From Trichodesmium erythraeum IMS101 (GTDB taxonomy: Bacteria > Cyanobacteriota > Cyanobacteriia > Cyanobacteriales > Microcoleaceae), in assembly GCF_000014265.1 (NCBI RefSeq), contig NC_008312.1, positions 4,050,001 through 4,082,000 of the forward strand: 32,000 bases of DNA, read 5' to 3'. Positions 1 through 29,536 of this stretch are shown here, piece after piece (positions within the stretch are counted from its first letter, which is position 1; every line of letters starts with the position of its first letter). A model generated the notes under the pieces. That model did no database searches. It worked only from the letters and a program-made list of their open reading frames with translations, and was not told where the DNA came from. A program made the position numbers and the translations under genes.

Positions 1-3000
1 TCAAATATTTTTTTGTGTTTGAGCGATCGCTAAATTTAGCCATCAGCCAGGAGCTGGAAAAATTGAGGAAAAAATTTATCTCAAATAATAAAGTCGTTTC
101 TCAGCCGTCAGCTTTTTGACCGAAAATTATCAGATGAAAAATTAGGCAAAAAATTAGATAAAAAATTAGACAAAAAATTAGAAGTACTCAGCCAGATATT
201 ACGGAAAATTCTCAGATGAAAAATTAGATAAAAAATTAGGCAAAAAATCAGAAATACTCAGACAGATATTTCGGTTCAAATATTTTTTTGTGTTTGAGCG
301 ATCGCTAATTTTAGCCATCAGCTAAGAGCTGGAAAAATTGAGGAAAAAATTTATCTCAAATAATAAAGTTGTTTCTCAAGCATCAGCTTTTTGACCGAAA
401 ATTCTCAGATGAAAAATTAGATGAAAAATTAGATGAAAAATTAGATGAAAAATTAGACAAAAAAATAAAAAGTACTCAGCCAGATATTACGGAAAATTCT
501 CAGATGAAAAATTAGATAAAAATTAGGCAAAAAATCAGAAATACTCAGACAGATATTTCCGTTCAAATATTTTTTCGTGTTTGAGCGATCGCTAATTTTA
601 GCCATTAGCTAAGAGCTGGAAAAATTGAGGAAAAAATTTATCTCAAATAATAAAGCCATTTCTCAGGCATCAGCTTTTTGACCGAAAATTATCAGATGAA
701 AAATTAGGCAAAAAATTAGATAAAAAATTAGGCAAAAAACCAGAAGTACTCAGCCAGATATTACGGAAAATTCTCAGATGAAAAATTAGATAAAAAATTA
801 GATAAAAATTAGAAGTACTCAGACAGATATTTCGGTTCAAATATTTTTTTGTGTTTGAGCGATCGCTAATTTTAGCCATCAGCTAAGAGCTGGAAAAATT
901 GAGGAAAAAATTTATCTCAAATAATAAAGTTGTTTCTCAAGCATCAGCTTTTTGACCGAAAATTCTCAGATGAAAAATTAGATGAAAAATTAGATGAAAA
1001 ATTAGATGAAAAATTAGACAAAAAAATAAAAAGTACTCAGCCAGATATTACGGAAAATTCTCAGATGAAAAATTAGATAAAAATTAGGCAAAAAATCAGA
1101 AATACTCAGACAGATATTTCCGTTCAAATATTTTTTCGTGTTTGAGCGATCGCTAATTTTAGCCATTAGCTAAGAGCTGGAAAAATTGAGGAAAAAATTT
1201 ATCTCAAATAATAAAGCCATTTCTCAGGCATCAGCTTTTTGACCGAAAATTATCAGATGAAAAATTAGGCAAAAAATTAGATAAAAAATTAGGCAAAAAA
1301 CCAGAAGTACTCAGCCAGATATTACGGAAAATTCTCAGATGAAAAATTAGATAAAAAATTAGATAAAAATTAGAAGTACTCAGACAGATATTTCGGTTCA
1401 AATATTTTTTTGTGTTTGAGCGATCGCTAATTTTAGCCATCAGCCAGGAGCTGGAAAAATTAAGGAAAAAATTTATCTCAAATAATAAAGCCATTTCTCA
1501 GGCATCAGCTTTTTGACCGAAAATTATCAGATGAAAAATTAGGCAAAAAATTAGAAGTACTCAGCCAGATATTACGGAAAATTCTCAGATGAAAAATTAG
1601 ATAAAAAATTAGATAAAAATTAGAAGTACTCAGACAGATATTTCCGTTCAAATATTTTTTTGTGTTTGAGCGATCGCTAAATTTAGCCATTAGCTAAGAG
1701 CTGGAAAAATTGAGGAAAAAATTTATCTCAAATATATTAATAAGTCATTTCTCAGCCGCCAGCTTTTTGACCGAAAATTCTCAGATGAAAAATTAGGCAA
1801 AAAATTAGATAAAAAATTAGGCAAAAAACCAGAAGTACTCAGCCAGATATTACGGAAAATTCTCAGATGAAAAATTAGATAAAAATTAGAAGTACTCAGA
1901 CAGATATTTCGGTTCAAATATTTTTTTGTGTTTGAGCGATCGCTAATTTTAGCCATCAGCTAAGAGCTGGAAAAATTGAGGAAAAAATTTATCTCAAATA
2001 ATAAAGTCATTTCTCAGCCGTCAGCTTTTTGACCGAAAATTCTCAGATGAAAAATTAGGCAAAAAACCAGAAGTACTCAGACAGATATTACGGAAAATTC
2101 TCAGATGAAAAATTAGATAAAAAATTAGGCAAAAAACCAGAAATACTCAGACAGATATTTCCGTTCAAATATTTTTTTGTGTTTGAGCGATCGCTAATTT
2201 TAGCCATCAGCTAAGAGGTGGAAAAATTGAGGAAAAAATTTATCTCAAATAATAAAGTCGTTTCTCAAGCATCAGCTTTTTGACGGAAAATTCTCAGATG
2301 AAAAATTAGGCAAAAAATTAGATAAAAAATTAGGCAAAAAACCAGAAGTACTCAGCCAGATATTACGGAAAATTCTCAGATGAAAAATTAGATAAAAATT
2401 AGAAGTACTCAGACAGATATTTCGGTTCAAATATTTTTTTGTGTTTGAGCGATCGCTAATTTTAGCCATCAGCTAAGAGCTGGAAAAATTGAGGAAAAAA
2501 TTTATCTCAAATAATAAAGTCATTTCTCAGCCGTCAGCTTTTTGACCGAAAATTCTCAGATGAAAAATTAGGCAAAAAACCAGAAGTACTCAGACAGATA
2601 TTACGGAAAATTCTCAGATGAAAAATTAGATAAAAAATTAGGCAAAAAACCAGAAATACTCAGACAGATATTTCCGTTCAAATATTTTTTTGTGTTTGAG
2701 CGATCGCTAATTTTAGCCATCAGCTAAGAGGTGGAAAAATTGAGGAAAAAATTTATCTCAAATAATAAAGTCGTTTCTCAAGCATCAGCTTTTTGACGGA
2801 AAATTCTCAGATGAAAAATTAGGCAAAAAATTAGATAAAAAATTAGGCAAAAAACCAGAAGTACTCAGCCAGATATTACGGAAAATTCTCAGATGAAAAA
2901 TTAGATAAAAAATTAGGCAAAAAATCAGAAATACTCAGACAGATATTTCCGTTCAAATGTTTTTTTCGTGTTTGAGCGATCGCTAAATTTAGCCATTAGC

Positions 3001-3341
3001 TAAGAGCTGGAAAAATTGAGGAAAAAATTTATCTCAAATATATTAATAAGTCATTTCTCAGCCGCCAGCTTTTTGACGGAAAATTATCAGATAAAAAATT
3101 AGGCAAAAAATTAGATAAAAAATTAGACAAAAAAATCAAAAGTACTCAGCCAGATATTACGGAAAATTCTCAGATGAAAAATTAGATAAAAAATTAGGCA
3201 AAAAACCAGAAGTACTCAGACAGATATTTCGGTTCAAATATTTTTTCGTGTTTGAGCGATCGCTAATTTTAGCCATCAGCTAAGAGCTGGAAAAATTGAG
3301 GAAAAAATTTATCTCAAATAATAAAGTCGTTTCTCAGCCGT
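1..3341. repeat. Satellite-like nested tandem array, 13 HIP1-anchored units of 250-287 bp, truncated by the window start
   Basis: The context GTTTGAGCGATCGCTAA recurs with the HIP1 core starting at 23, 298, 585, 859, 1146, 1420, 1670, 1936, 2187, 2449, 2700, 2976 and 3256 (spacings 275/287/274/287/274/250/266/251/262/251/276/280). Each unit has a conserved head of about 105 bp plus two paralogous half-units (GAAAATTCTCAGATGAAAAATTAG...TACTCAG[A/C]CAGATATT[A/T]C[G/C]G). Half-unit length varies through 1-5 copies of a 12-13-nt microrepeat (AAAAATTAG + 3 nt). By eye 298-858 is identical to 859-1419, and 1936 to about 2400 is identical to 2449 to about 2913 (dimer-level higher-order repeats). The array ends near 3341. 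Confidence 0.95.
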
Positions 3342-9508: not shown

Positions 9509-11926
9509 TCAAAGTGTTTTTTTAACAACTCGATAAACGAAACTCAGAGTTGCCCAACTATTAATATCGAGAGCATAATTATCCGTTGATAACTCTAAAG
9601 ATTGAGTAGCTAATTGACTAGCACTCTGTAAATCTTGTAAAGTTGCTTGTGCGACTGCTAAAGGATTCAATATTTCTTTAATTAGCTGATCATCTCTAAT
9701 TTGAAACACCTTTCCATCAACAAGAGTTGCAATTGTTTTCTTAAATGGTTGATGGCTACAAATAATTAGGCTTTCTTCTAATCCTTCAGAACCTATTACC
9801 CTCCATCCCAAAGATTTTGTATTTTTAGAAGAATTATTAATAACTGGAGGTATATTTACACTATCTCCCGGAGAAACAATTAACTCTGTTAGTGAAAGTT
9901 GAGGATCATTCTCAAGTTGATTAGATATAGTTGGATCGACAACAAAAAAGCGCCCACTACTGTCTAAAATGACTAACATAAAATAGACTGGGCGATCGCC
10001 ATAATTATATAATTGATATTGAATTCGACTACCAATGGGTAAAGTTCCTAATGAATTACTAATTTCAGATTTGTCTATATCTTCATTGATATCAGTTAAA
10101 AATTTTGTGGTTCCATCCCTAACCCCCAAAGTTTCTCGCTTAAGAATTAACCTTGCATTTGGAGTAACAGTAGCCAAGTTAGCTCTAAGTTTGATTTGAG
10201 TAGATCCTTCATTCTTAGTTAAGCGTAGCATCTTAGCTGCCAGTAAGGTTTCCAATGGGGAACGTAACCTTTCTATTGCTCCCTTGACTGCTTCTCCTTT
10301 TTCTCCTATAGTCTTAGGTATAAGTACCTTGCCCAGAGAAAATAGAGCATAATGACCCTGAGAAGTAGAGGGTAAAATAGCAGAAGAACTTTGAGCGATA
10401 GTTGTTTCTTCTACTCGACTAAATATATAATCAGCGGCTTGTGTATCTGCTACTACGGTAACTTTAGGTATTGCTGAAAAACCACTGGTAGCATCTACCC
10501 GCTCTATTCTTGACATATTATGGTCTAGAGCTATCATCAAATTCAGAGATTGAGGTAAAACTCTAATCTTTTCTTGTACCAGAGATCCTGTCAAAAGTTG
10601 AAGATTAGGAAGAAGATTTTGAGAAGTTTTTTGTGTTTGGTCGTTGATATTTTCCTGGTTTATATCTGATAATTGTTGTGAATTATTAGTGTCAATGATA
10701 ACGGAAGCTTTTGCTTTTAAGCCATTTCGATTCTGAATTTGTAATTCAAAGCTTAAGTCTAAATCAAAATCAGGAAAAGTTTTGAATAGAGAATAAGATG
10801 TAACCGTATCAAGAATACTAACTGGTAATCCTCCTAACCATAGGTTTGCTGTTTTGCCGTTATCTTCTACTGAAGTGATTACACCCGTAGCAGAGGGTAA
10901 TAAAGGATTAAAGATATTTTGATTACTGATAGCTACTGGAATTATAGTAGGTACTTTTGTAGATTGAGCAATGTTCTGTTGTTTTGCTTGTTTAAACTCT
11001 GGTTGCTGATTAACTCCAGTTATTTGTTCTACCTCGCCAGCAGCTTGTGAAAAACTAATTTGTAGTCTGGTGGCGGGGGCTGTAGACCATAAATTTTGGG
11101 TAAGAGCATAAGTAAATAAACCAGAGCTAAAACCATTCCAGTCAGCTTCAGTAGCAAATTGGTTTTGTTGGCTAGCCTTAAGAACTAAGCCTTTGAGTTG
11201 ACTTTCATAAATTTCCTGTTCTCCTAAAATATTTTGTTGATGTCGCAGTTGCATTTGCATTGCTTTCTCTTTCATATTGATTTGCTCTGTAGTCAAACTA
11301 GGTCGAGAGCGAATTCTGAGATTACCTTGCAAATTTTTACCAGGATATACATAGCTAGTATCTAATATAGTTACTACTTTTTTCGTAGGGAGCGATCGCA
11401 ATAATAACCAGAGAGTCTCTTCTAAAACATCATTTATTTCTGCGCCCTCATTATTCGAAGCTATACCATCTATTGGAACTAGACTATTTTGAAAAATTAA
11501 ATTTGAGGTACTTAATTCATTCTGTTTATTTTGATCAATCATCTTAGTCACACGACTACCATAGCCACTAAAATGAAACACAACCAAGTCATCTGGTTTA
11601 GCTTGATCAGTTAAATGACTAATAAAAGCTGTTTCTATATTTTCCCTAGTAGCTTGTTCATTTGTGAGAGTCAGAATATCAGCAGGTAAAAAACCAAACC
11701 GATGAATTAGCAATTCCCGTTGCATCTCCACATCTGTAACACACCCAGACAGAGATGCATTTAGATATTCATTAATACCTACTAAGAATGCTAATTTACC
11801 TCCTGTAGTTTGAGCTAAGGCTTCTGAATAATAATTTTGGAGGCGCCACCACCCTGCTTGATTGATTCCCAATACTCCTAGGGCCAAACTAGCCCTTTGC
11901 AGAAATTCCCGCCGCTTTAATCCCAT
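9509..11926 (-). CDS. Tat-signal peptidase C14 (orthocaspase) homologue with Tyr/Ser in place of the catalytic His/Cys, plus a ~550-aa C-terminal region of unknown function
   Basis: 805-aa ORF. The N-terminus MGLKRREFLQRASLALGVLG is a twin-arginine signal. The p20-like block is LAFLVGINEY...GCVTDVEMQRELLIHRFGF...ATRENI...VVFHFSGYGSRV. The usual SGHG His is Tyr122 (codon 11561-11563). The usual D-x-C-H-S-G motif is ILDTSYVYPG, with Ser191 (codon 11354-11356). Confidence 0.85.
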   Translation of the reverse strand: MGLKRREFLQRASLALGVLGINQAGWWRLQNYYSEALAQTTGGKLAFLVGINEYLNASLSGCVTDVEMQRELLIHRFGFLPADILTLTNEQATRENIETAFISHLTDQAKPDDLVVFHFSGYGSRVTKMIDQNKQNELSTSNLIFQNSLVPIDGIASNNEGAEINDVLEETLWLLLRSLPTKKVVTILDTSYVYPGKNLQGNLRIRSRPSLTTEQINMKEKAMQMQLRHQQNILGEQEIYESQLKGLVLKASQQNQFATEADWNGFSSGLFTYALTQNLWSTAPATRLQISFSQAAGEVEQITGVNQQPEFKQAKQQNIAQSTKVPTIIPVAISNQNIFNPLLPSATGVITSVEDNGKTANLWLGGLPVSILDTVTSYSLFKTFPDFDLDLSFELQIQNRNGLKAKASVIIDTNNSQQLSDINQENINDQTQKTSQNLLPNLQLLTGSLVQEKIRVLPQSLNLMIALDHNMSRIERVDATSGFSAIPKVTVVADTQAADYIFSRVEETTIAQSSSAILPSTSQGHYALFSLGKVLIPKTIGEKGEAVKGAIERLRSPLETLLAAKMLRLTKNEGSTQIKLRANLATVTPNARLILKRETLGVRDGTTKFLTDINEDIDKSEISNSLGTLPIGSRIQYQLYNYGDRPVYFMLVILDSSGRFFVVDPTISNQLENDPQLSLTELIVSPGDSVNIPPVINNSSKNTKSLGWRVIGSEGLEESLIICSHQPFKKTIATLVDGKVFQIRDDQLIKEILNPLAVAQATLQDLQSASQLATQSLELSTDNYALDINSWATLSFVYRVVKKTL

Positions 11927-12548: not shown

Positions 12549-13715
12549 TTAGATTTTCATAGCCTTAGCTAACTCGGCTGCTACTTCTGGTCGTGAAAAT
12601 TCTGGTGGTGGCAACTCACCCCGACGTAACATTTCTCGCACTTTTGTCCCTGATAGATGAATTCTTTCTTCTCCTGTACTTGGACTTGTTTTACTTGTGG
12701 CCATACCTTGGGTACGAGTACAGTAAAAAGCGTGTTCAAACTTCATTGGGACAATATCTAACTCTCTAGGTTCAAACTCATCAAAAATATATTGAGCATC
12801 ATAGGTTCCATAATAATCTCCAACTCCAGCATGATCTCGTCCAACAATGAAGTGAGTACAACCATAGTTTTTCCGCACCAAAGCATGAAAAATTGCCTCC
12901 CGCGGGCCAGCATAACGCATTGCTGAGGGATTAATGGCCATCATGACACGATTTTCAGGAAAGTATTTTTCTAACATAATCTCGTAGCAACGCATCCTGA
13001 CATCAGCAGGAATATCATCTGATTTAGTAGCACCAACCAAAGGATGTAAAAATAAACCGTCTACTACTTCTAAAGCACATTTTTGAATATATTCGTGGGC
13101 ACGATGGATAGGGTTACGGGTTTGGAAACCAACTATTGTCTTCCAATTTTTTTCCTGAAATAGTTTTCTGGACTCAGCTGGATCTATTTGATATTTGGGA
13201 AATAATGGGTGAGGATGACGTTCTAATAACCAAACTGGGCCTGCTAAGTTGACTGGGCCAGCATCATACAGGACTTTCACTCCTGGGTGTTTGATTTCTT
13301 GTGTACTATAAACATTGATTGCCTCATGAGCTTTGTTGTAGTGGAACTTTTGAGTTAATTCTAAAACTCCAGCAAATTCTCCTTCTGGAGAAGACAGACC
13401 TACCCAGCTTCCTTCTTTTATTGAATCTGCTACTTCTTCTGATACTGATAATGTTACAGGTATACTCCAAGGCAGACCATTTTTAAGACGCATATCAACA
13501 ACTACACTTTCATAGTCATCTTTGTCCATAAAGCCATTGAGGGGACTAAAACCTCCTATAGCTATCATTTCTAAGTCTGAAAGAGCCCGTTTGTCTAGTT
13601 GTATCTTTGGCAAGCTTTCAGCTTTTTCGATAAATTCTTGTCGTTCTGCTGGTGTGGCAATTCGATTAATTAGATGGCCACCGTGTGCTGGTATACCATT
13701 GAGATGCTGATTCAA
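12549..13715 (-). CDS. sat: Sulfate adenylyltransferase (ATP sulfurylase)
   Basis: 388-aa ORF with the family motifs [13 protein letters not shown] and [11 protein letters not shown]. The length is typical of the homo-oligomeric Sat type. Confidence 0.95.
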
Positions 13716-13966: not shown

Positions 13967-14707
13967 GCTCTAATATTTGCAGTAGCGTTACAGTCTGCAT
14001 CTATCAATTTTTCTTACTTAGTTTGGTATAAGCCTGGTTTAATTCGTTGACCACTAAAACTATACTCAGTTCTATTCTCAGGATGGTAAATAAGTATTTT
14101 ATCTTTTAGGGGAAATTGTGAGGAATGTCAAACTAACTAGTGGTTAAAACCGGGAGCTGTTGTTTTCATCCAGCAGTTTAAGCTGACTGCTTTACAACCA
14201 AGGGAATTTTGACGATGATTTTTTTATTTAGAGCAGGGTAAATATATCTAAATGATGAAAGCCTTTCCCGGTAATGGTTTGAGAATTTAATTATCAAAAA
14301 TACTTTGAGTCATAAAACCTTTGCCCACTTCCCATCTCAAAAATAATAGGACTTACCCAGAGCTACTGTATCTGTATCTATATCTGTATCTAGTAGGGAT
14401 GTTTATCCTGGAGAATACTACCCAAATATGTTGTAGAGTCTGCAAGGCTTTTTTGCTCTGGATCTTCAATATGAAACACTCCCTAAAAATACTCTATGGT
14501 TTGATCTCTGTGGCTAACTCCTGAATAAGATAGGTTCGCCCTGGTGTTTAGAGGGTAGGGAATATTCATAAGGTGAAGTTTTTTACTTTCTAGTTTTGAC
14601 TAAACTTGGGATATAAGCAGGCATAGAATTTCTTAATACATATAAAAAAAAAATTTTTCCTATTTGTAAAGTTTTGTAAAAAAAGCACTGTTTTCAATGT
14701 AAATAAT

Positions 14708-14737
14708 TTGACAAAGACGGGTGAACTAAATTAGTAT
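14708..14737 (+). promoter_or_regulatory. Candidate sigma70-type promoter upstream of the CIRCE pair
   Basis: TTGACA (14708-14713), an 18-nt spacer, then TAGTAT (14732-14737). This would place CIRCE-1 about 45-50 nt into the transcript. Confidence 0.35.
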
Positions 14738-14790
14738 TATTTAAGTAATATATTAATCTCTTAAACCGCAAAATTTGATTCAGTAAACTA

Positions 14791-14817
14791 TTAGCACTCA
14801 TGACTGAAGATTGCTAA
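14791..14817 (+). promoter_or_regulatory. CIRCE-like inverted repeat 1 (HrcA operator consensus TTAGCACTC-N9-GAGTGCTAA)
   Basis: TTAGCACTC-ATGACTGAA-GATTGCTAA matches 17 of 18 arm positions with exact N9 spacing. Confidence 0.8.
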
Positions 14818-14894
14818 AAATAAGTCATTAAGTTGTGACTATTACTTCAAGGAATAAATAAAAGTTTTGCATCTGGTTTATAGAGTTAAATAAA

Positions 14895-14921
14895 TTAGCA
14901 CTCACCTGAAAAGACTGCTAA
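14895..14921 (+). promoter_or_regulatory. CIRCE-like inverted repeat 2
   Basis: TTAGCACTC-ACCTGAAAA-GACTGCTAA matches 17 of 18 arm positions with exact N9 spacing. It starts 104 bp after copy 1. A TATAAT hexamer follows at 14933-14938. Confidence 0.8.
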
Positions 14922-15175
14922 TTTTAAGGGGCTATAATAATCTTAAATCAGTTATAAGAGTTGGAGTTGTTCCTATTTATTTAAAGGATACAATATCTAT
15001 ATTTGATAACTACGGCACTCTTGAGGAGAGTGAGGTATATTTTAATACTAATCTCTATTTCCTATCCCCATATTTCTTAAAGTTGTAAAACTTTGTACCT
15101 CATTAACTCCAAAACTGCTGTCAAAGGGATTGCTATACACCATAATTTGAGAAACTTTTAGGAGGAAAAGGGTAA

Positions 15176-15517
15176 ATGCAATATACTTTTGAACTTTTAG
15201 GCATTTCTCCAGTACTACATTTTTTTAATCAGCAACAAAAACTACAAGGAGAAGATAACTTAAATGTGGAATATTTAGGAAACCGTAAGTGTTCCCTAGA
15301 TCTGTTTCTCAAGTCTGTAGAAACTATTTCTTCTCAGCGCAGTTGGAGGGCAGATAAAGTTGTAGAAACGGTGATCAATTTTTGGATGAATAATCCTGAT
15401 AGCGTTCAGTATTGGAATTCTCGCTTAAAAGATGCTGGAAAAGATAATCTTCTAGTGGCAAGGGTGGGAGATATTAAGTCTTTACGGAAATCTTTTGAAT
15501 TATTACTGAATAATTGA
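15176..15517 (+). CDS. Hypothetical 113-aa protein (no family recognised)
   Basis: The ATG is preceded by a strong RBS (TAGGAGGAAAAGGGTAAATG). Amino-acid composition is balanced. It is the only plus-strand ORF in this 2-kb intergenic area and lies downstream of the CIRCE pair. Confidence 0.6.
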   Translation: MQYTFELLGISPVLHFFNQQQKLQGEDNLNVEYLGNRKCSLDLFLKSVETISSQRSWRADKVVETVINFWMNNPDSVQYWNSRLKDAGKDNLLVARVGDIKSLRKSFELLLNN

Positions 15518-15782
15518 ATAATAAGTTATAACGCTACGGACAACTCAAAAGTTACAAGTAACCACTGAAGTGAGTTTTCTGTGGCTAAATATGGTATTGA
15601 AAAATATTTTTCCCCCTAAATGCTGACTGCTATGGTAAGAAGGGGCTGATTTGAGTGAGGTTGATGCTAGTTAGTTGGGGTATTTAATACTAACCTGGTT
15701 TCTATCTTTTTTTATACTGAGTACTACTAAATTTGGTACTCACAGGATTTTATTGAGTATGAGGCAAAATTGTCCCTGGCAA

Positions 15783-15838
15783 GATGTGGGTGCAACAAAG
15801 ATTTGATCATGATGTGGGTGCAGCAAAGGTTTGATCAT
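15783..15838. repeat. 28-bp tandem duplication GATGTGGGTGCA[A/G]CAAAG[A/G]TTTGATCAT
   Basis: Units at 15783-15810 and 15811-15838 differ at 2 positions. The duplication lies 24 bp beyond the nagB-like stop codon. Confidence 0.9.
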
Positions 15839-15861
15839 GATCGAAAGTTTTTTTTCTTCCT

Positions 15862-16671
15862 TTATTTAGAAATGAGGCTAGCGGAATTAGTATCTAAAAA
15901 TAATGTTGCCTGAGATTTTTGTCGCAAAATAGAAGCAGGATATATTGTACTTATAGGATTATACAAAATATTTCTGATGACTTCTGCTTTTCGTTTTTCT
16001 GGTGCGAGGCAGAAGATTTTTTTTGCGGAACAAATTGCTGGAATGGTTACTGTAAATGCGTATTGGGGAACTGCATCAAGATGAGGAAAATGGCCTTGAT
16101 TTACTTGTTGTTGACGGGAGGTTAAGTCAAGTTTGACTAATTTAATTGTTTGAGGATCGTTAAAATTTGCTACGGAGGGGTCGTTAAAGGCTAAGTGTCC
16201 ATTGTCTCCTATGCCTAGAAGAACTAGATCGATGGGTTGAGCGGATAATAGTTGAGTGTAGCGATCGCATTCTTCTAAGGGTTCATTTGTATCCCCTTGG
16301 ATATAATGAAATTGACGAGGAGTAATAAATTTTTCTACTTTTTCCTGGAGATAGTAACGAAAACTGGCAGGATGATCTGCGGAAATTCCTAGATATTCAT
16401 CTAAATGAAATAAAGTTACTTGAGACCAGTCTATACCACCTAAAGTAGTTAAGGCTCTAAGAAACATAATTTGTGAATTTCCGGTTGCTAGAATAACATT
16501 TGCTTTTCGGTGTCTAGTAATCAAGTTTTGCAAATATTCAAGGACGCTTAAGGCAGCGTCTTTAGCCATTTCTAGTTCTTGGTGATATATTCTAACAGAT
16601 AGAGCGTCAACTGAGAAAGTTTTTATTGGTCTATATAGTTTGGGTGTATTATTCCTGAAGTTAGAAGTCAT
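15862..16671 (-). CDS. nagB: Glucosamine-6-phosphate deaminase / 6-phosphogluconolactonase family protein (NagB-like)
   Basis: 269-aa ORF with ATGNSQ, FHLDEYLGI and GIGDNGHLAFNDP, all characteristic of the NagB/Pgl sugar-phosphate isomerase family. Confidence 0.8.
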   Translation of the reverse strand: MTSNFRNNTPKLYRPIKTFSVDALSVRIYHQELEMAKDAALSVLEYLQNLITRHRKANVILATGNSQIMFLRALTTLGGIDWSQVTLFHLDEYLGISADHPASFRYYLQEKVEKFITPRQFHYIQGDTNEPLEECDRYTQLLSAQPIDLVLLGIGDNGHLAFNDPSVANFNDPQTIKLVKLDLTSRQQQVNQGHFPHLDAVPQYAFTVTIPAICSAKKIFCLAPEKRKAEVIRNILYNPISTIYPASILRQKSQATLFLDTNSASLISK

Positions 16672-21417: not shown

Positions 21418-21595
21418 GGGAAGGTTGGTAAAAGGTTGCTAATGAGCTTGTCGTTTTTTTGCTTGTTTGTGGGCTTTGACGTTTGCAAGTTTGCTTCCAT
21501 CACTACAAGTCCCTAGAACGTTTATGTCAATATCTACGCCTATAACTGCTCGTTTTTTAGGGGTAGACTTGGGCTGATATTCGTATTTATTTTTT

Positions 21596-22001
21596 GCGTT
21601 GATTAAAAAGTCATGAGTATAAGCGAGTTAACGCAACCTTACTTTTATAATATCAAAAAAAATCTCGTTTGCCAAGGGAATTTCTTTGGGAATTTCGTTT
21701 TTCTCAAGGTTAACTAAGGTTAATTGATTCTTGGGATAATTGGGGTCGTTTTTTTTTGCGTTGATTAAAAAGTCATGAGTATAAGCGAGTTAACCCCACC
21801 TTGCTTTTATAATATCAAAAAAAATCTCGTTTGCCAAGGGAATTTCTTTGGGAATTTCGTTTTTCTCAAGGTTAACTAAGGTTAATTGATTCTTGGGATA
21901 ATCGGGGTCGTTTTTTTTGCGTTGATTAAAAAGTCATAAGTATATGCGAGTTCACCCCACCATACTTTTATAATATCAAAAAAAATCTCGTTTGCCAAGA
22001 T
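21596..22001. repeat. Tandem repeat of ~162 bp, about 2.5 copies
   Basis: GCGTTGATTAAAAAGTCAT[G/A]AGTAT starts at 21596, 21758 and 21919 (periods 162 and 161). The third copy diverges after TTTGCCAAG near 22000. Confidence 0.9.
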
Positions 22002-24307: not shown

Positions 24308-27300
24308 CTATGTTGCATATTGCTGTAATATCTTTTTTGCCCAGATCTGTAGTTGTTCGTCTGAGTCGTTTTCGGCTCTGTCTTGTAATAGTGGGATGGT
24401 TTGGGGATGGTCTGGGTATTGTTTGACTATTGCTTCTAGTGCTGTTTGTCGAGGGTTGTCTTGAATTTCATGTATACGTTCAAAGGGATCGTTGAGGGCG
24501 TTGTCATAAAATATTTCAAAAGTTCCGGGCTCGTGTTTCCAACCAGTTGCTATTTGTCCGACGGCTTCAGTTCGCACCCGCCAACTTTCATCAGACAGAA
24601 CCCTTTGTTTGAGTAATTCTAAAATTCCGGGCTCGTGTTTCCAAACAGTTGCTATTTGTTCGACGGCTTCAGTTCGCACAAACTCACTTTCATCAGACAC
24701 AACCCTTGGTTTGAGTAATTCTAAAATTCCGGGCTCGTGTTTCCAACCAGTTACTATTTGTCGGAGGGCTTCAGTTCGCACCTGCCAACTTTCATCAGAC
24801 ACAACCCTTTGTTTGAGTAGTTCTAAAATTCCGGGCTCGTGTTTCCAACCAGTTGCTATTTGTCGGAGGGCTTCAGTTCGCACCCACCAACTTTCATCAG
24901 ACACAACCCTTTCTTTGAGTAATTCTAAAATTCCGGGCTCGTGTTTCCAAGCAGTTGCTATTTGTCGGAGGGCTTCACGTCGCACATCCGAATTTTCATC
25001 AGACACAACCCATTGTTTGAGTAGTTCTAAAATTCCGGGCTCGTGTTTCCAACCAGTTGCTATTTGTCGGACGGCTTCAGTTCGCACCCACCAACTTTCA
25101 TCAGACACAACCCTTTGTTTGAGTAATTCTAAAATTCCGGGCTCGTGTTTCCAAGCAGTTGCTATTTGTCGGAGGGCTTCAGTTCGCACAGACTCACTAT
25201 CATCAGACACAACCCATTGTTTGAGTAGTTCTAAAATTCCGGGCTCGTGTTTCCAACTAGTTGCTATTTGTCGGAGGGCTTCAGTTCGCACATCCAAGTT
25301 TTCATCAGACACAACCCATTGTTTGAGTAATTCTAAAATTCCGGGCTCGTGTTTCCAACTAGTTGCTATTTGTTCGAGTACTTCACGTCGCACATCCGAA
25401 TTTTCATTAGACACAACCCATTGTTTGAGTAATTCTAAAATTCTGGGCTCGTGTTTCCAACCAGTTGCTATTTGTTCGAGTGCTTCACGTCGCACATCCA
25501 AATTTTCATCAGACACAACCCATTGTTTGAGTAATTCTAAAATTCCGGGCTCGTGTTTCCAACCAGTTGCTATTTGTCGGACGGCTTCAGTTCGCACATC
25601 CGAATTTTCATTAGACACAACCCATTGTTTGAGTAATTCTAAAATTCCGGGCTCGTGTTTCCAACCAGTTGCTATTTGTTCGAGTGCTTCACGTCGCACA
25701 TACTCACTTTCATCAGACACAACCCTTTCTTTGAGTAATTCTAAAATTCCGGGCTCGTGTTTCCAAGCAGTTGCTATTTGTCGGAGGGCTACACCTCGTA
25801 CATTCAAGTCATCATCAGACACAACTCTTTCTTTGAGTAATTCTAAAATTCCGGGCTCGTGTTTCCAACCAGTTGCTATTTGTCCGACGGCTTCAGTTCG
25901 CACAAACCAACTTTCATCAGACACAACCCATTGTTTGAGTAATTCTAAAATTCCGGGCTCGTGTTTCCAACCAGTTGCTATTTGTCCGACGGCTTCAGTT
26001 CGCACAAACCAACTTTCATCAGACACAACCCATTGTTTGAGTAATTCTAAAATTCCGGGCTCGTGTTTCCAACCAGTTGCTATTTGTCGGACGGCTTCAG
26101 TTCGCACATCCGAGTCGTCATCAGACACAGCCCTTTGTTTGAGTAATTCTAAAATTCCGGGCTCGTGTTTCCAACCAGTTGCTATTTGTCGGAGGGCTTC
26201 AGTTCGCACCTGCCAACTATCATCAGACACAACCCTTTGTTTGAGTAATTCTAAAATTCCGGGCTCGTGTTTCCAACCAGTTGCTATTTGTTCGAGTGCT
26301 TCACGTCGCACAGACTCACTATCATCAGACACAACCCATTGTTTGAGTAATTCTAAAATTCCGGGCTCGTGTTTCCAACCAGTTGCTATTTGTCGGAGGG
26401 CTTCAGTTCGCACTTGCCAACTATCATCAGACACAACCCATTGTTTGAGTAATTCTAAAATTCCGGGCTCGTGTTTCCAACCAGTTGCTATTTGTCGGAC
26501 GGCTTCAGTTCGCACTTGCCAACTATCATCAGACACAACCCTTTGTTTGAGTAATTCTAAAATTCCGGGCTCGTGTTTCCAACCAGTTGCTATTTGTCGG
26601 ACGGCTTCAGTTCGCACAGACTCACTATCATCAGACACAACCCATTGTTTGAGTAATTCTAAAATTCCGGGCTCGTGTTTCCAACCAGTTGCTATTTGTC
26701 GGACGGCTTCAGTTCGCACAGACTCACTATCATCAGACACAACCCATTGTTTGAGTAATTCTAAAATTCCGGGCTCGTGTTTCCAAACAGTTGCTATTTG
26801 TTCGACGGCTTCACGTCGCACAGACTCACTATCATCAGACACAGCCCATTGTTTGAGTAATTCTAAAATTCCCGGCTCATGTTTCCAACCAGTTGCTATT
26901 TGTCGGAGGGCTTCAGTTCGCACATGCCAACTTTCATTAGACACAACCCATTGTTTGAGTAATTCTAAAATTCCCGGCTCATGTTTCCAACCAGTTGCTA
27001 TTTGTCGGAGGGCTTCAGTTCGCACATCCAAATTTTCATCAGACACAACCCATTGTTTGAGTAATTCTAAAATTCCGGGCTCGTGTTTCCAACCAGTTGC
27101 TATTTGTCGGACGGCTTCAGTTCGCACAGACTCACTATCATCAGACACAACCCATTGTTTGAGTAATTCTAAAATTCCGGGCTCGTGTTTCCAACCGGTA
27201 GCTATTTGTCGGACGGCTTCAGTTCGCACAAACCAACTTTCATCAGACACAACCCTTTCTTTAAGCCAAGCATAAGTTGAAGAGTCATCCCTCCAGGATG

Positions 27301-29536
27301 TAGCCACTATTTCCACAGCTTGAGTACGAATTTCACGAACTAACTCTGCATCTTCATCATAAGATTCATAAAAATAACCAAGGTCATGCCCAGTCAAACC
27401 TTTTAACCTATTTAATAACCGAGAACTCACATCACCAATACCCTGAAGACTCCTAACTTCAAACAAACACTTGCCCGCCAAAAATAAATTCTGAAACTTT
27501 TCCTCTTCCCCATCTTTTTCCATCAAATAACTAATAATATCTCCCACAAACTTAGCATCTATCATCCCAGCAATTAACCGCAATACTTCATGCCATTTTT
27601 CATCCCGCCAATGGTTACCGAAAACATCATTTATTAACCCATCTTTTCCCAAAGTTTGTGTTTCTTTAAACTGCCAAACAAAACTCCAAGCACAGAAATA
27701 TTCCAAAAAGGTTCGATGCACAAAAGCATAATATCCACCCCCAACAAAACACAAAATAAAATTACGAACCCGCAACTGTTCTATCAACGCCCTAGCCACA
27801 GTTGTCACATCATTAATATCTACACTTTCTAGATAATCTTTAATGATCTTTTTTAAACTATTTTCATCAATCAAATTACCAGCCAAACCTTCTTTATTCT
27901 GTTGCATAAAATCAGCTACTCGGCGCAAAATTTCTTGCTTATCTTTATAGTCAATAGTTATCGGGTCAATCTTAGCATCAACTAATGTTCTTTCCATATC
28001 CCATTGCTGTAATAAAATCAGAGAAGCTTGATTATAAAGTTCCGCCCTATCTCTGGGCAATTCTTGATGACGATTTAAAATAGCCATCATAGTTAATAAA
28101 AAAGGATTTTCCGACAATTGCTTAATAGCTGAATAATCATTAATTGCTCGTTTCAATTTTTCTCTTTTCCGCTCTTTTTCTCGCTCATCTTGATAAGTTA
28201 AATCATGCCAAGTTTGAATAAAATTATCAATTTGTTCTGACTCTAAATTTTGCAACATAAAATGATAAAATTCAGCATCCCGGAGTTGTTGTGGCTGATA
28301 ACCAATTACTCTAGAAGTAACAATAACTCGGACATTTTTATAGTCATTTGTAAATCGATGAATATCAGTAATTATTTCCTTTCTTTTAGCAGGTTCAAAA
28401 ACTTCATCCAACCCATCAAACATCACAATAGCATCACCATTTTGTAGTTTTGCATAAAGTTCTTGTTGAGGTAAATGGCAAGTTACACCGCTACCTTTTT
28501 CCAGAAAATCTAGAAAATTTTGGCATTTATTAGTCTCATAATTTCTCACATAAGTCTGTAGTTCAATTAATAGAGGAATTGGTTTTGAAGGCAAATCTAT
28601 TAGAGGTAATTCTGCCCATTCTAAAGCGATATATTGTAATAAAGTAGATTTGCCAGAACCAGGGTCTCCCAGAATAACTAAATATTTATATTCGGTATTT
28701 TCTATTAGTTCTAAAACCGAGCGAACTGGCTGTTCTAAATATCTGCGTCGGTCAGCTTCCAATTGTTCTGGAGAAAATTCTATTTCTAACTGCCCAGTCT
28801 CTTTTAATTGTTGGAGATATTCTTTAGGAACTTCATACAATTGAGGCATAAATTCTTGAGATTCCCGAACATTTTGAGGAATAAACATCTGCCAGAGTTT
28901 CAGTTCATTATAGGTATAACCACTAGTATCTAAACTTTCTAATTTGAGATTTCCATATCGTTCTTGGATTCCTTCTTGGTATTTTTCGAGGTCAAATTCT
29001 GGTGTAATTTTATAATTTTGATTTGCTATTTTATCGAGGTTTTGTGAATCTAATATTTTCCGTAATTCATCAGAATTTATCCGAATTGCTTGAACTTTTT
29101 TCCCATATCTTTTTGCCACTCTTAACCAGTCAAAATCAGGTGGCAAAGTTGGAATAATTTCCTTGGCAACATCAGCTAATATCTTAATATCTACAATTTT
29201 TATATTATTATCAAAAGCACTACCCAAAGTTTCTCGAACTGACTTCTTTTTGAGAAATTGTTTGAAAGGTGGAATATATTTCTTTAGCTGGTTTTCCTCT
29301 AAATCTGCATCTTCCAATTCTTGCTGTGCTAATTCTAAAAATTCTTTAGTTGCTTTTCCTATAGCTTCTTGCAAAGGTTTTTTATTTGTTAAATCTTTAA
29401 TAACATTACCTAAGCTAGTTTTAAAGAAGTCTTTAATACAATCTTTAGCAGCATCTTTAGCTAAATCTTCCAGAATAGGTTTAAATACAAACCCAACCCC
29501 TTGAGTCACTCCCCAAACAATTAACCAGTCAATCAT
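24308..29536 (-). CDS. NLR-like STAND NTPase: unknown N-terminal domain + NACHT + 27 HEAT-type repeats
   Basis: 1742-aa ORF with RBS AAAGGATGAAATAATTATG. Walker A is LGDPGSGKST (aa 289-298, Lys codon 28649-28651). Walker B is IVMFDGLDEV (aa 370-379). The repeats carry the SD-x3-VR-xEA-xxQIA signature typical of PBS-lyase/HEAT-like repeats. Confidence 0.95.
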   Translation of the reverse strand: MIDWLIVWGVTQGVGFVFKPILEDLAKDAAKDCIKDFFKTSLGNVIKDLTNKKPLQEAIGKATKEFLELAQQELEDADLEENQLKKYIPPFKQFLKKKSVRETLGSAFDNNIKIVDIKILADVAKEIIPTLPPDFDWLRVAKRYGKKVQAIRINSDELRKILDSQNLDKIANQNYKITPEFDLEKYQEGIQERYGNLKLESLDTSGYTYNELKLWQMFIPQNVRESQEFMPQLYEVPKEYLQQLKETGQLEIEFSPEQLEADRRRYLEQPVRSVLELIENTEYKYLVILGDPGSGKSTLLQYIALEWAELPLIDLPSKPIPLLIELQTYVRNYETNKCQNFLDFLEKGSGVTCHLPQQELYAKLQNGDAIVMFDGLDEVFEPAKRKEIITDIHRFTNDYKNVRVIVTSRVIGYQPQQLRDAEFYHFMLQNLESEQIDNFIQTWHDLTYQDEREKERKREKLKRAINDYSAIKQLSENPFLLTMMAILNRHQELPRDRAELYNQASLILLQQWDMERTLVDAKIDPITIDYKDKQEILRRVADFMQQNKEGLAGNLIDENSLKKIIKDYLESVDINDVTTVARALIEQLRVRNFILCFVGGGYYAFVHRTFLEYFCAWSFVWQFKETQTLGKDGLINDVFGNHWRDEKWHEVLRLIAGMIDAKFVGDIISYLMEKDGEEEKFQNLFLAGKCLFEVRSLQGIGDVSSRLLNRLKGLTGHDLGYFYESYDEDAELVREIRTQAVEIVATSWRDDSSTYAWLKERVVSDESWFVRTEAVRQIATGWKHEPGILELLKQWVVSDDSESVRTEAVRQIATGWKHEPGILELLKQWVVSDENLDVRTEALRQIATGWKHEPGILELLKQWVVSNESWHVRTEALRQIATGWKHEPGILELLKQWAVSDDSESVRREAVEQIATVWKHEPGILELLKQWVVSDDSESVRTEAVRQIATGWKHEPGILELLKQWVVSDDSESVRTEAVRQIATGWKHEPGILELLKQRVVSDDSWQVRTEAVRQIATGWKHEPGILELLKQWVVSDDSWQVRTEALRQIATGWKHEPGILELLKQWVVSDDSESVRREALEQIATGWKHEPGILELLKQRVVSDDSWQVRTEALRQIATGWKHEPGILELLKQRAVSDDDSDVRTEAVRQIATGWKHEPGILELLKQWVVSDESWFVRTEAVGQIATGWKHEPGILELLKQWVVSDESWFVRTEAVGQIATGWKHEPGILELLKERVVSDDDLNVRGVALRQIATAWKHEPGILELLKERVVSDESEYVRREALEQIATGWKHEPGILELLKQWVVSNENSDVRTEAVRQIATGWKHEPGILELLKQWVVSDENLDVRREALEQIATGWKHEPRILELLKQWVVSNENSDVRREVLEQIATSWKHEPGILELLKQWVVSDENLDVRTEALRQIATSWKHEPGILELLKQWVVSDDSESVRTEALRQIATAWKHEPGILELLKQRVVSDESWWVRTEAVRQIATGWKHEPGILELLKQWVVSDENSDVRREALRQIATAWKHEPGILELLKERVVSDESWWVRTEALRQIATGWKHEPGILELLKQRVVSDESWQVRTEALRQIVTGWKHEPGILELLKPRVVSDESEFVRTEAVEQIATVWKHEPGILELLKQRVLSDESWRVRTEAVGQIATGWKHEPGTFEIFYDNALNDPFERIHEIQDNPRQTALEAIVKQYPDHPQTIPLLQDRAENDSDEQLQIWAKKILQQYAT
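24524..27262 (-). repeat. 27 tandem 102-bp (34-aa) intragenic repeats
   Basis: The unit is WKHEPGILELLKQWVVSDxxxxVRTEAxRQIATG. WKHEP occurs 27 times, and I counted the 102-bp period directly (CCGGGCTCGTG at 24627, 24729, ...). Most of each unit is nucleotide-identical between copies. Confidence 0.95.

Follow-up and report, generated by a model that had tools for sequence, protein, structure and literature searches.

The gene encoding a 113-aa protein in Trichodesmium erythraeum IMS101 is probably a monocistronic member of the HrcA/CIRCE regulon, repressed via two CIRCE operators placed upstream of it, and the comparative sequence data described below point to a third HrcA target in cyanobacteria, beyond the two chaperonin loci. 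The features by which membership of this regulon is recognized from sequence, namely the operator match, its placement relative to promoter and leader, and its conservation upstream of orthologs, were all found here. The locus was analyzed within a 32-kb stretch of DNA (hereafter the window), in which no chaperone gene, hrcA, tRNA or Rfam family was found. The features considered are as follows.

12549-13715, minus strand: sulfate adenylyltransferase gene, flanking and divergent
14665-14679, plus strand: distal box TGTAAAGTTTTGTAA (TGTA-N8-TAA), conserved as TGTAAAGTTATGTAA in 13 upstream regions from Trichodesmium, Dapis and Okeania
14698-14740, plus strand: promoter P1 (predicted), the best sigma-70-like site of the region, invariant in the clade
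14698-14713, plus strand: P1 box TGTAAATAATTTGACA, including the -35-like TTGACA at 14708-14713
14732-14737 or 14735-14740, plus strand: P1 -10 region TAGTATTAT, as TAGTAT or TATTAT, respectively (consensus scan and alignment)
14791-14817, no strand assigned: CIRCE copy 1, TTAGCACTC-ATGACTGAA-GATTGCTAA, 17 of 18 arm positions matching, N9 spacer
14864-14872, plus strand: block GTTTTGCAT between the CIRCE copies, its TTTTGC invariant in the clade alignment
14867-14872 and 14891-14896, plus strand: -35 (TTGCAT) and -10 (TAAATT) of the candidate internal promoter P2, from which the start would fall in the loop of CIRCE copy 2
14895-14921, no strand assigned: CIRCE copy 2, TTAGCACTC-ACCTGAAAA-GACTGCTAA, 17 of 18 arm positions matching, N9 spacer
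14933-14938, plus strand: -10-like TATAAT of the candidate promoter P3, 11 nt after CIRCE copy 2, with which its -35 would overlap
15007-15130, plus strand: Trichodesmium-specific leader insertion, present in the alignment only in the window and in L006
15160-15165, plus strand: ribosome-binding site AGGAGG, read from the sequence; GAGGA is invariant in relatives
15176-15517, plus strand: 113-aa gene with ATG start, 255 bp past CIRCE copy 2
15862-16671, minus strand: NagB/Pgl-like gene, flanking and convergent

A search of the whole window with the pattern TTAGCACTC-N9-GAGTGCTAA, in which up to three mismatches were allowed, returned exactly two matches, each having a single mismatch and lying 104 bp apart from start to start, and thus agreed with the original prediction of a pair of CIRCE elements with exact spacing. 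The accompanying claim that such a pair could not be due to chance was likewise borne out, as the mean was 0.02 matches per window in 100 dinucleotide-preserving shuffles, none of which contained two or more. As had also been pointed out, the mismatch occupies the same place in both copies, position 3 of the right arm (GATTG in copy 1 and GACTG in copy 2). Both copies are situated between P1 (14698-14740) and the ribosome-binding site (15160) without any intervening gene; no plus-strand ORF of at least 40 aa was found between the CIRCE elements and the 113-aa gene, nor was any conserved small ORF found in the leader. The strong ribosome-binding site and the distance of about 255 bp attributed to the 113-aa ORF were confirmed.

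The comparative set consisted of the best 80 genomic loci (L001-L080), each comprising a homolog with 3 kb on either side (479,786 nt altogether), and was scanned for CIRCE at a threshold of up to two mismatches. All 56 matches were located at most 500 nt upstream of the homolog, a space of 40,000 nt in total, and none in the other 440 kb, while 20 shuffles of all 80 loci gave 0-1 matches in total. The proposed search for homologs and for CIRCE upstream of them recovered homologs in many cyanobacterial lineages, with CIRCE at 34 of the 80 loci, and the confinement of the matches to this upstream space supports the proposal that the gene would be a new member of the HrcA regulon and not part of a chaperone operon. 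The CIRCE-positive loci belong to Dapis, Okeania, Trichodesmium, other Microcoleaceae, Kamptonema, Laspinema/Oscillatoria, Allocoleopsis, Calothrix, Brunnivagina and Stigonema. Single homologs illustrate the association: the element stands at -187 with one mismatch in Anabaena azotica, and perfect copies are found at -165 in Calothrix brevissima NIES-22 and at -118 in Baaleninema, the homolog of which is 38% identical. Even two homologs of 23-26% identity, both located downstream of a DAHP-synthase gene, are preceded by such an element, which reads TTGGCACTC-N9-GAGTGCCAG at -125 in L089 and TTAGCACTC-N9-GAGTGCCAG at -114 in L096, a locus of 63% GC. Since the neighboring genes differ between lineages and are shared only inside the genus-level clade, CIRCE travels with the 113-aa gene itself.

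The association is not universal. At the orthologs of Microcoleus, Planktothrix, Lyngbya/Limnoraphis, Arthrospira and Coleofasciculus, CIRCE was absent even when spacers of N8-N10 and more mismatches were admitted, and three more distant homolog loci also lacked it. As about half of the orthologs examined were without CIRCE at relaxed thresholds, as were some of the distant homologs, the predicted membership in the regulon is lineage-dependent. No substitute palindrome shared by the CIRCE-less lineages was found.

Once oriented, the arms of copy 1 are TTAGCACTC/GATTGCTAA at all two-copy loci of the Trichodesmium/Dapis/Okeania clade (L001-L014), and those of copy 2 are TTAGCACTC/GACTGCTAA at all of these loci except L006, whereas the spacers are variable. 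The orientation of copy 1 is flipped in L001, L002, L005, L007 and L009-L014, and that of copy 2 in L003, L005 and L008. Because the same oriented arms are kept throughout the clade, flipped elements included, the asymmetry of the arms is a fixed property and not decay. According to the fold prediction, the arm substitution changes the hairpin energy from -11.2 to -5.0 kcal/mol, that is, to about half the stability. The earlier suggestion that this substitution may tune repressor affinity or hairpin stability fits with both its fixation across the clade and this predicted loss. Among all loci, none of the 57 elements in tandem arrays is a perfect N9 element, in contrast to 11 of the 20 loci with a single element; tandem arrays being never perfect and single elements often so, two or three weak sites appear to be used in place of one strong site. 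The spacings of the tandem elements are 44, 45, 59, 67, 70 or 93-113 bp depending on the lineage, and the array sequences differ as well, from which it follows that tandem arrays arose more than once and with no fixed helical phasing. Fixed arms, free spacers and a lack of compensatory changes are as expected for a protein-bound DNA palindrome and not for an RNA structure.

Upstream of the operators, the consensus scan ranked TTGACA-N18-TAGTAT (14708-14737) as the top-scoring site of the region (10/12), in accordance with the promoter originally proposed, and this site is invariant in the Trichodesmium/Dapis/Okeania clade. Transcription from P1 is predicted to start at about 14744-14747. In L001-L015, the P1 boxes TGTAAATAATTTGACA and TAGTATTAT are 18-21 nt apart, with a further 49-53 nt from P1 to the first CIRCE. 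The motif is recognizable beyond the clade in other Oscillatoriales: a P1-like motif occurred in 32 of 97 loci, each time upstream of the gene and nowhere else, and its occurrence at Microcoleus loci devoid of CIRCE implies that P1 is the ancestral promoter of the gene in Oscillatoriales. CIRCE lies between P1 and the gene in the Trichodesmium clade, L019 and L030, but upstream of the P1-like motif in L037 and L046, and hence the presumed geometry of repression is not uniform. Aligning 13 upstream regions of the clade showed the promoter, both CIRCE copies and the GTTTTGCAT block to be invariant and the leader past CIRCE copy 2 to be variable. The distal box at 14665-14679 may resemble an NtcA-type site.

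The length of the leader also varies within the clade, being about 110 bp longer in Trichodesmium, whereas only 60 nt separate CIRCE copy 2 from the start codon in Okeania. The insertion specific to Trichodesmium holds a terminator-like hairpin, CACTCTTGAGGAGAGTG (15016-15032), and a perfect GTA-N8-TAC (15085-15098); it was considered as a repeated mobile element, a reading that was dropped upon finding no second copy in the window. The K-box, a light-responsive element of groESL, was likewise looked for by its consensus and was not found near the gene at any locus. The operators follow the best promoter by approximately 45-150 nt, a position that counts against repression through CIRCE when compared with Synechocystis groES, the transcript of which starts inside the CIRCE loop (PMC2662882).

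In the mechanism that we propose, HrcA dimers activated by GroEL would occupy both imperfect operators at normal temperature, at about +45 and +150 relative to the predicted P1 start, and would thereby shut off transcription, perhaps also covering weaker internal promoters near CIRCE copy 2. Under heat or other folding stress, HrcA would be inactivated, and groESL, groEL2 and the gene would be transcribed together. Each copy would be weakened by its one arm substitution, and the pair probably stands in for one perfect site.

A possible though rather unlikely variant of this scheme is that two promoters are paired with two operators, such that CIRCE copy 1 would act as a roadblock for P1 and CIRCE copy 2 would cover an internal promoter, as at groESL. 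The internal promoter could be either TTGCAT-N18-TAAATT (14867-14896) or the TATAAT at 14933-14938 with its -35 in CIRCE copy 2. The invariance of TTTTGCAT between the copies throughout the clade speaks for it, and a TTTTGCAT-like or TTTTGAC motif follows the single CIRCE of the Nostocales Anabaena azotica and Calothrix. Further points in its favor are the -10-like hexamer past CIRCE copy 2 in most relatives (TATAGT or TAAAAT in the P3 columns of the clade alignment), the Okeania gene beginning just 60 nt past the second element, and the start site of Synechocystis groES in the CIRCE loop (PMC2662882). Neither internal site was listed by the consensus scan, however, and in three Okeania loci the spacing from TTGCAT to CIRCE copy 2 is shifted by 8 bp and the -10 is degraded to AAAATT; as this spacing is not kept, the promoter function of P2 is uncertain.

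In two further readings, binding of HrcA to the pair would not be the key step. The inverted repeats might act mainly as RNA, either as 5'-UTR hairpins affecting mRNA stability or as parts of a heat-regulated leader or sRNA. Both elements are downstream of the best promoter and would thus probably be transcribed, both hairpins form in the centroid structure predicted for the leader, and a CIRCE in the 5' leader is reported to destabilize mRNA in Bacillus. Against this, exact CIRCE arms are kept across the phylum with neither co-variation nor compensation of the mismatches, the substitution leaves a hairpin of only -5 kcal/mol, the fold of the leader is no better than that of shuffles (z = -1.0), and Rfam gave no match in the window at gathering thresholds nor, up to E = 1, in 14400-15900. 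Moreover, conservation of the leader ends at CIRCE copy 2, most of the part beyond it being missing in Okeania, and in L037 and L046 the element precedes the conserved promoter motif. We therefore regard an RNA function as improbable, and the non-coding leader or sRNA offered as an option in the original prediction was not supported. That the elements are non-functional relics, arising by chance or left over from a rearranged groE promoter, with an ORF not regulated by them, could be argued from the one mismatch per copy and the lack of a chaperone gene in the window. The chance level of 0.02, the arms remaining invariant while spacers and flanks diverged, and the 56 of 56 matches upstream of the homolog in relatives, together with an association kept in different genomic contexts down to homologs of 23% identity, leave this with almost no probability; the relic reading, including the rearranged groE promoter that had been named as a possible refutation, is effectively refuted by the comparative data.

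Membership of the 113-aa gene in the HrcA regulon, as we favor, makes the locus an addition to the known HrcA/CIRCE system and not a new kind of system. In cyanobacteria, in which hrcA is widely conserved, HrcA represses the CIRCE-bearing groESL and groEL2 (PMC7760821, PMC5381637, PMC2853384), and in the literature searched the element is placed only at groESL1, with its paralog groESL1.2, and at groEL2 (PMC7760821, PMC5381637, PMC4152365, PMC8400943, PMC2853384). The present locus shares with the groESL1 and groEL2 genes of Synechocystis, Anabaena/Nostoc and Stigonematales the operator TTAGCACTC-N9-GAGTGCTAA upstream of the gene (PMC7760821, PMC5381637, PMC4152365) and, expectedly, the logic of repression at normal temperature and release on folding stress. 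It differs from them in that an uncharacterized 113-aa protein is encoded instead of a chaperonin, in that two operators, or up to three in other lineages, all imperfect, replace one consensus copy, in the lack of a K-box consensus match, and in its patchy membership among lineages. The operators also lie some 45-150 nt past a conserved promoter, unlike in Synechocystis groES. No earlier report of a CIRCE-linked 113-aa gene in cyanobacteria was found in the literature searched (outside subscription journals and RegPrecise), and the primary-transcriptome paper on T. erythraeum IMS101 does not mention the locus in its text.

The view that CIRCE is bound to chaperone genes and usually single holds for the cyanobacterial literature on groESL and groEL2, but not for other phyla, in which both tandem elements and non-chaperone targets of HrcA are known. 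Tandem CIRCE occurs at the groES1/groEL2 promoters of Streptomyces (PMC13284173) and at the hrcA operon of Lactobacillus plantarum (PMC3842655); there too the control region carries two copies, although these control chaperone operons, whereas the cyanobacterial tandems are independent in several lineages, spaced by 44-113 bp and always imperfect. In Mycobacterium tuberculosis, the heat-induced ruc (Rv0991c) is the sole non-chaperonin gene directly repressed by HrcA, and its product, a small protein whose function was at first obscure, has since been identified as a redox-regulated chaperone (PMC7448276). The 113-aa gene is likewise a small non-chaperonin candidate target, in another phylum; ruc is in addition driven by SigH, and no kinship in sequence or fold was detected between Ruc, a four-cysteine zinc ribbon, and the 113-aa family with its alpha/beta model lacking a PDB match. 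A second comparison is offered by hagF (CTL0271) of Chlamydia, a lineage-specific, HrcA-repressed and heat-induced gene whose product blocks HrcA dimerization (PMC12154930). No homology between hagF and the present gene is evident; hagF may serve as a model for the possible function of a phylum-restricted HrcA target, although a HagF-like feedback by the 113-aa protein would be pure conjecture.

The ORF had been described as an orphan, which proved incorrect. The 113-aa protein has 138 database relatives at E ≤ 0.001, all of which are cyanobacterial, about 111-120 aa long and named "hypothetical"; its homologs show 52-98% identity, the nearest match (98%) being from a Trichodesmium MAG, and the identical gene is present in assembly GCA_022448615.1 as well as on contigs from marine metagenomes. 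Relatives are encoded in 525 species genomes. The family is compact: a search of 1.8 billion proteins clustered at 50% identity yielded no more than 36 representatives, among them divergent members at 22-30% identity. A comparison of 24 diverse members showed 21 residues to be invariant, and differences from close relatives are fewest at codon position 2 and most at position 3, for instance 17/5/28 against L007. From such sequence conservation, we conclude that this is a genuine gene subject to purifying selection.

No match to the protein was found among the Pfam, NCBIfam, PHROG and PADLOC models. Its AlphaFold model had a pLDDT of 46 with a shallow alignment of close homologs and reached a pLDDT of 90.3 and a pTM of 0.79 with distant members added, the modeled topology being beta-alpha-beta-alpha-alpha-alpha-beta-alpha with three long strands. 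With this predicted model, Foldseek returned nothing at E ≤ 0.001 in the PDB (best E 0.28, TM 0.24) and nothing significant in BFVD. The sole sequence match in the PDB was YbaQ (2eby), with an E value of 0.0015 in alignment A1 and of 0.034 in the more diverse A3, and JGI names relatives "VapI antidote". An HTH antitoxin of the HigA/VapI type (COG3093) was accordingly considered and rejected as unsupported, since no Pfam HTH matched the protein even at E = 10, the match to 2eby faded, and the all-helical five-helix HTH fold differs from the one modeled with confidence. The absence of any resemblance to a chaperone or other known family is an observation that counts against the favored assignment to the regulon.

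As for the function, a role related to proteostasis can be suggested only tentatively, and a more elaborate picture is also no more than tentative: that the protein represents a cyanobacteria-specific and structurally new class of stress protein in the core HrcA regulon of many lineages, acting either as a chaperone or chaperonin cofactor like Ruc or as a feedback modulator of HrcA like HagF, with the putative NtcA-type box coupling nitrogen status to folding stress. A third HrcA target, if true, would introduce an unknown player into the heat-shock and proteostasis network of the ecologically important Trichodesmium and Nostocales, one conserved as a candidate from a GC-rich lineage to Nostocales and having a confidently predicted fold without a match. 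Earlier orphan targets of HrcA turned out to be informative, Ruc as a redox-regulated chaperone and HagF as an HrcA antagonist. Furthermore, the locus represents a natural series of operator variants, with one perfect element versus tandem imperfect ones, both orientations, and presence versus absence, for the tuning of HrcA occupancy.

The elements of the control region and the gene that it precedes are arranged in the window as follows.

14665-14679: second box, TGTA-N8-TAA
14698-14740: P1, predicted conserved promoter of the 113-aa gene
14791-14817: CIRCE copy 1, HrcA operator palindrome (two arms and a 9-nt spacer)
14895-14921: CIRCE copy 2
15007-15130: leader insertion
15015-15032: hairpin in the leader insertion, GCACTC-N7-GAGTG
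15085-15098: perfect GTA-N8-TAC in the leader insertion
15176-15517, plus strand: 113-aa gene

When both CIRCE copies were compared between the window and the homologous loci L001-L014, the inner 15 bp of each element, comprising the asymmetric arm position and the 9-nt spacer, proved to be an exact reverse complement between near-related species. For example, copy 1 of L006 is the reverse complement of copy 1 of L001, and copy 2 of L007 is that of copy 2 of L003. All four possible orientation combinations of the two copies were also found in this set. These observations indicate that CIRCE has repeatedly undergone micro-inversions, mediated by hairpins and with TTAGCA/TGCTAA as their boundaries, and, as judged from the sequence comparison, show that its function would be independent of orientation.

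The arrangement of the elements also varied among the relatives. In Okeania sp. KiyG1 (L012), the two copies are 386 bp apart versus the usual spacing of about 103-112 bp, and in L030 CIRCE 2 is separated from the gene by several hundred bp of inserted, repeat-rich sequence; the control regions of both loci are split by insertions. In Stigonema ocellatum (L075), a CIRCE with perfect arms and a 10-nt spacer, TTAGCACTC-ACCACAAGAA-GAGTGCTAA, lies at -166 and adjoins a degenerate N9 copy.

The leader insertion was found only in Trichodesmium, and no further copies of it were present elsewhere in the window. The arms of its hairpin are similar to the CIRCE core, and the hairpin, which is followed by a weak T-tract, was flagged as terminator-like by the scan. 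Just 3' of the 113-aa gene, a 28-bp unit is directly repeated 2.1 times (15783-15841).

The P1 motif, detected in 32 loci, consists of TGTA-N8-[G/A/T]ACA followed after 22 nt by TATTAT/TATTAA, and in L037 its box matches TGTA-N8-TACA perfectly. In the Trichodesmium clade (Trichodesmium/Dapis/Okeania), the second box is located 33 bp upstream of the P1 box. Compared with the NtcA consensus, this layout is that of a putative NtcA-type class II promoter with a candidate NtcA site; if such a promoter is real, the 113-aa gene would integrate folding stress and nitrogen status. In Microcoleus sp. A003_D6 (L058, 2714-2841), which belongs to a lineage without CIRCE, the P1 motif occurs in two copies that flank a perfect 13-bp inverted repeat, AGTAGGTTGGGTT-N9-AACCCAACCTACT; with its 9-nt loop, this repeat shares the N9 geometry of CIRCE but is unrelated to it in sequence.

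Elsewhere in the window, the minus-strand gene at 9509-11926 is metacaspase-like: its 805-aa product carries a caspase (Peptidase_C14) domain at the N terminus. At positions 1-3337, which are non-coding, a 274-bp unit is repeated in tandem (12.4 copies, 86% match), and 12-bp AGATGAAAAATT micro-repeats and GCGATCGC are embedded in this array. An intergenic direct repeat at 21590-21999 consists of 2.5 copies of a 162-bp unit (95% match), and a 102-bp tandem repeat at 24515-27262 (26.9 copies, 91% match, no indels) lies inside a very large minus-strand ORF (24308-29536, 1742 aa), where it corresponds to 34-aa protein repeats.
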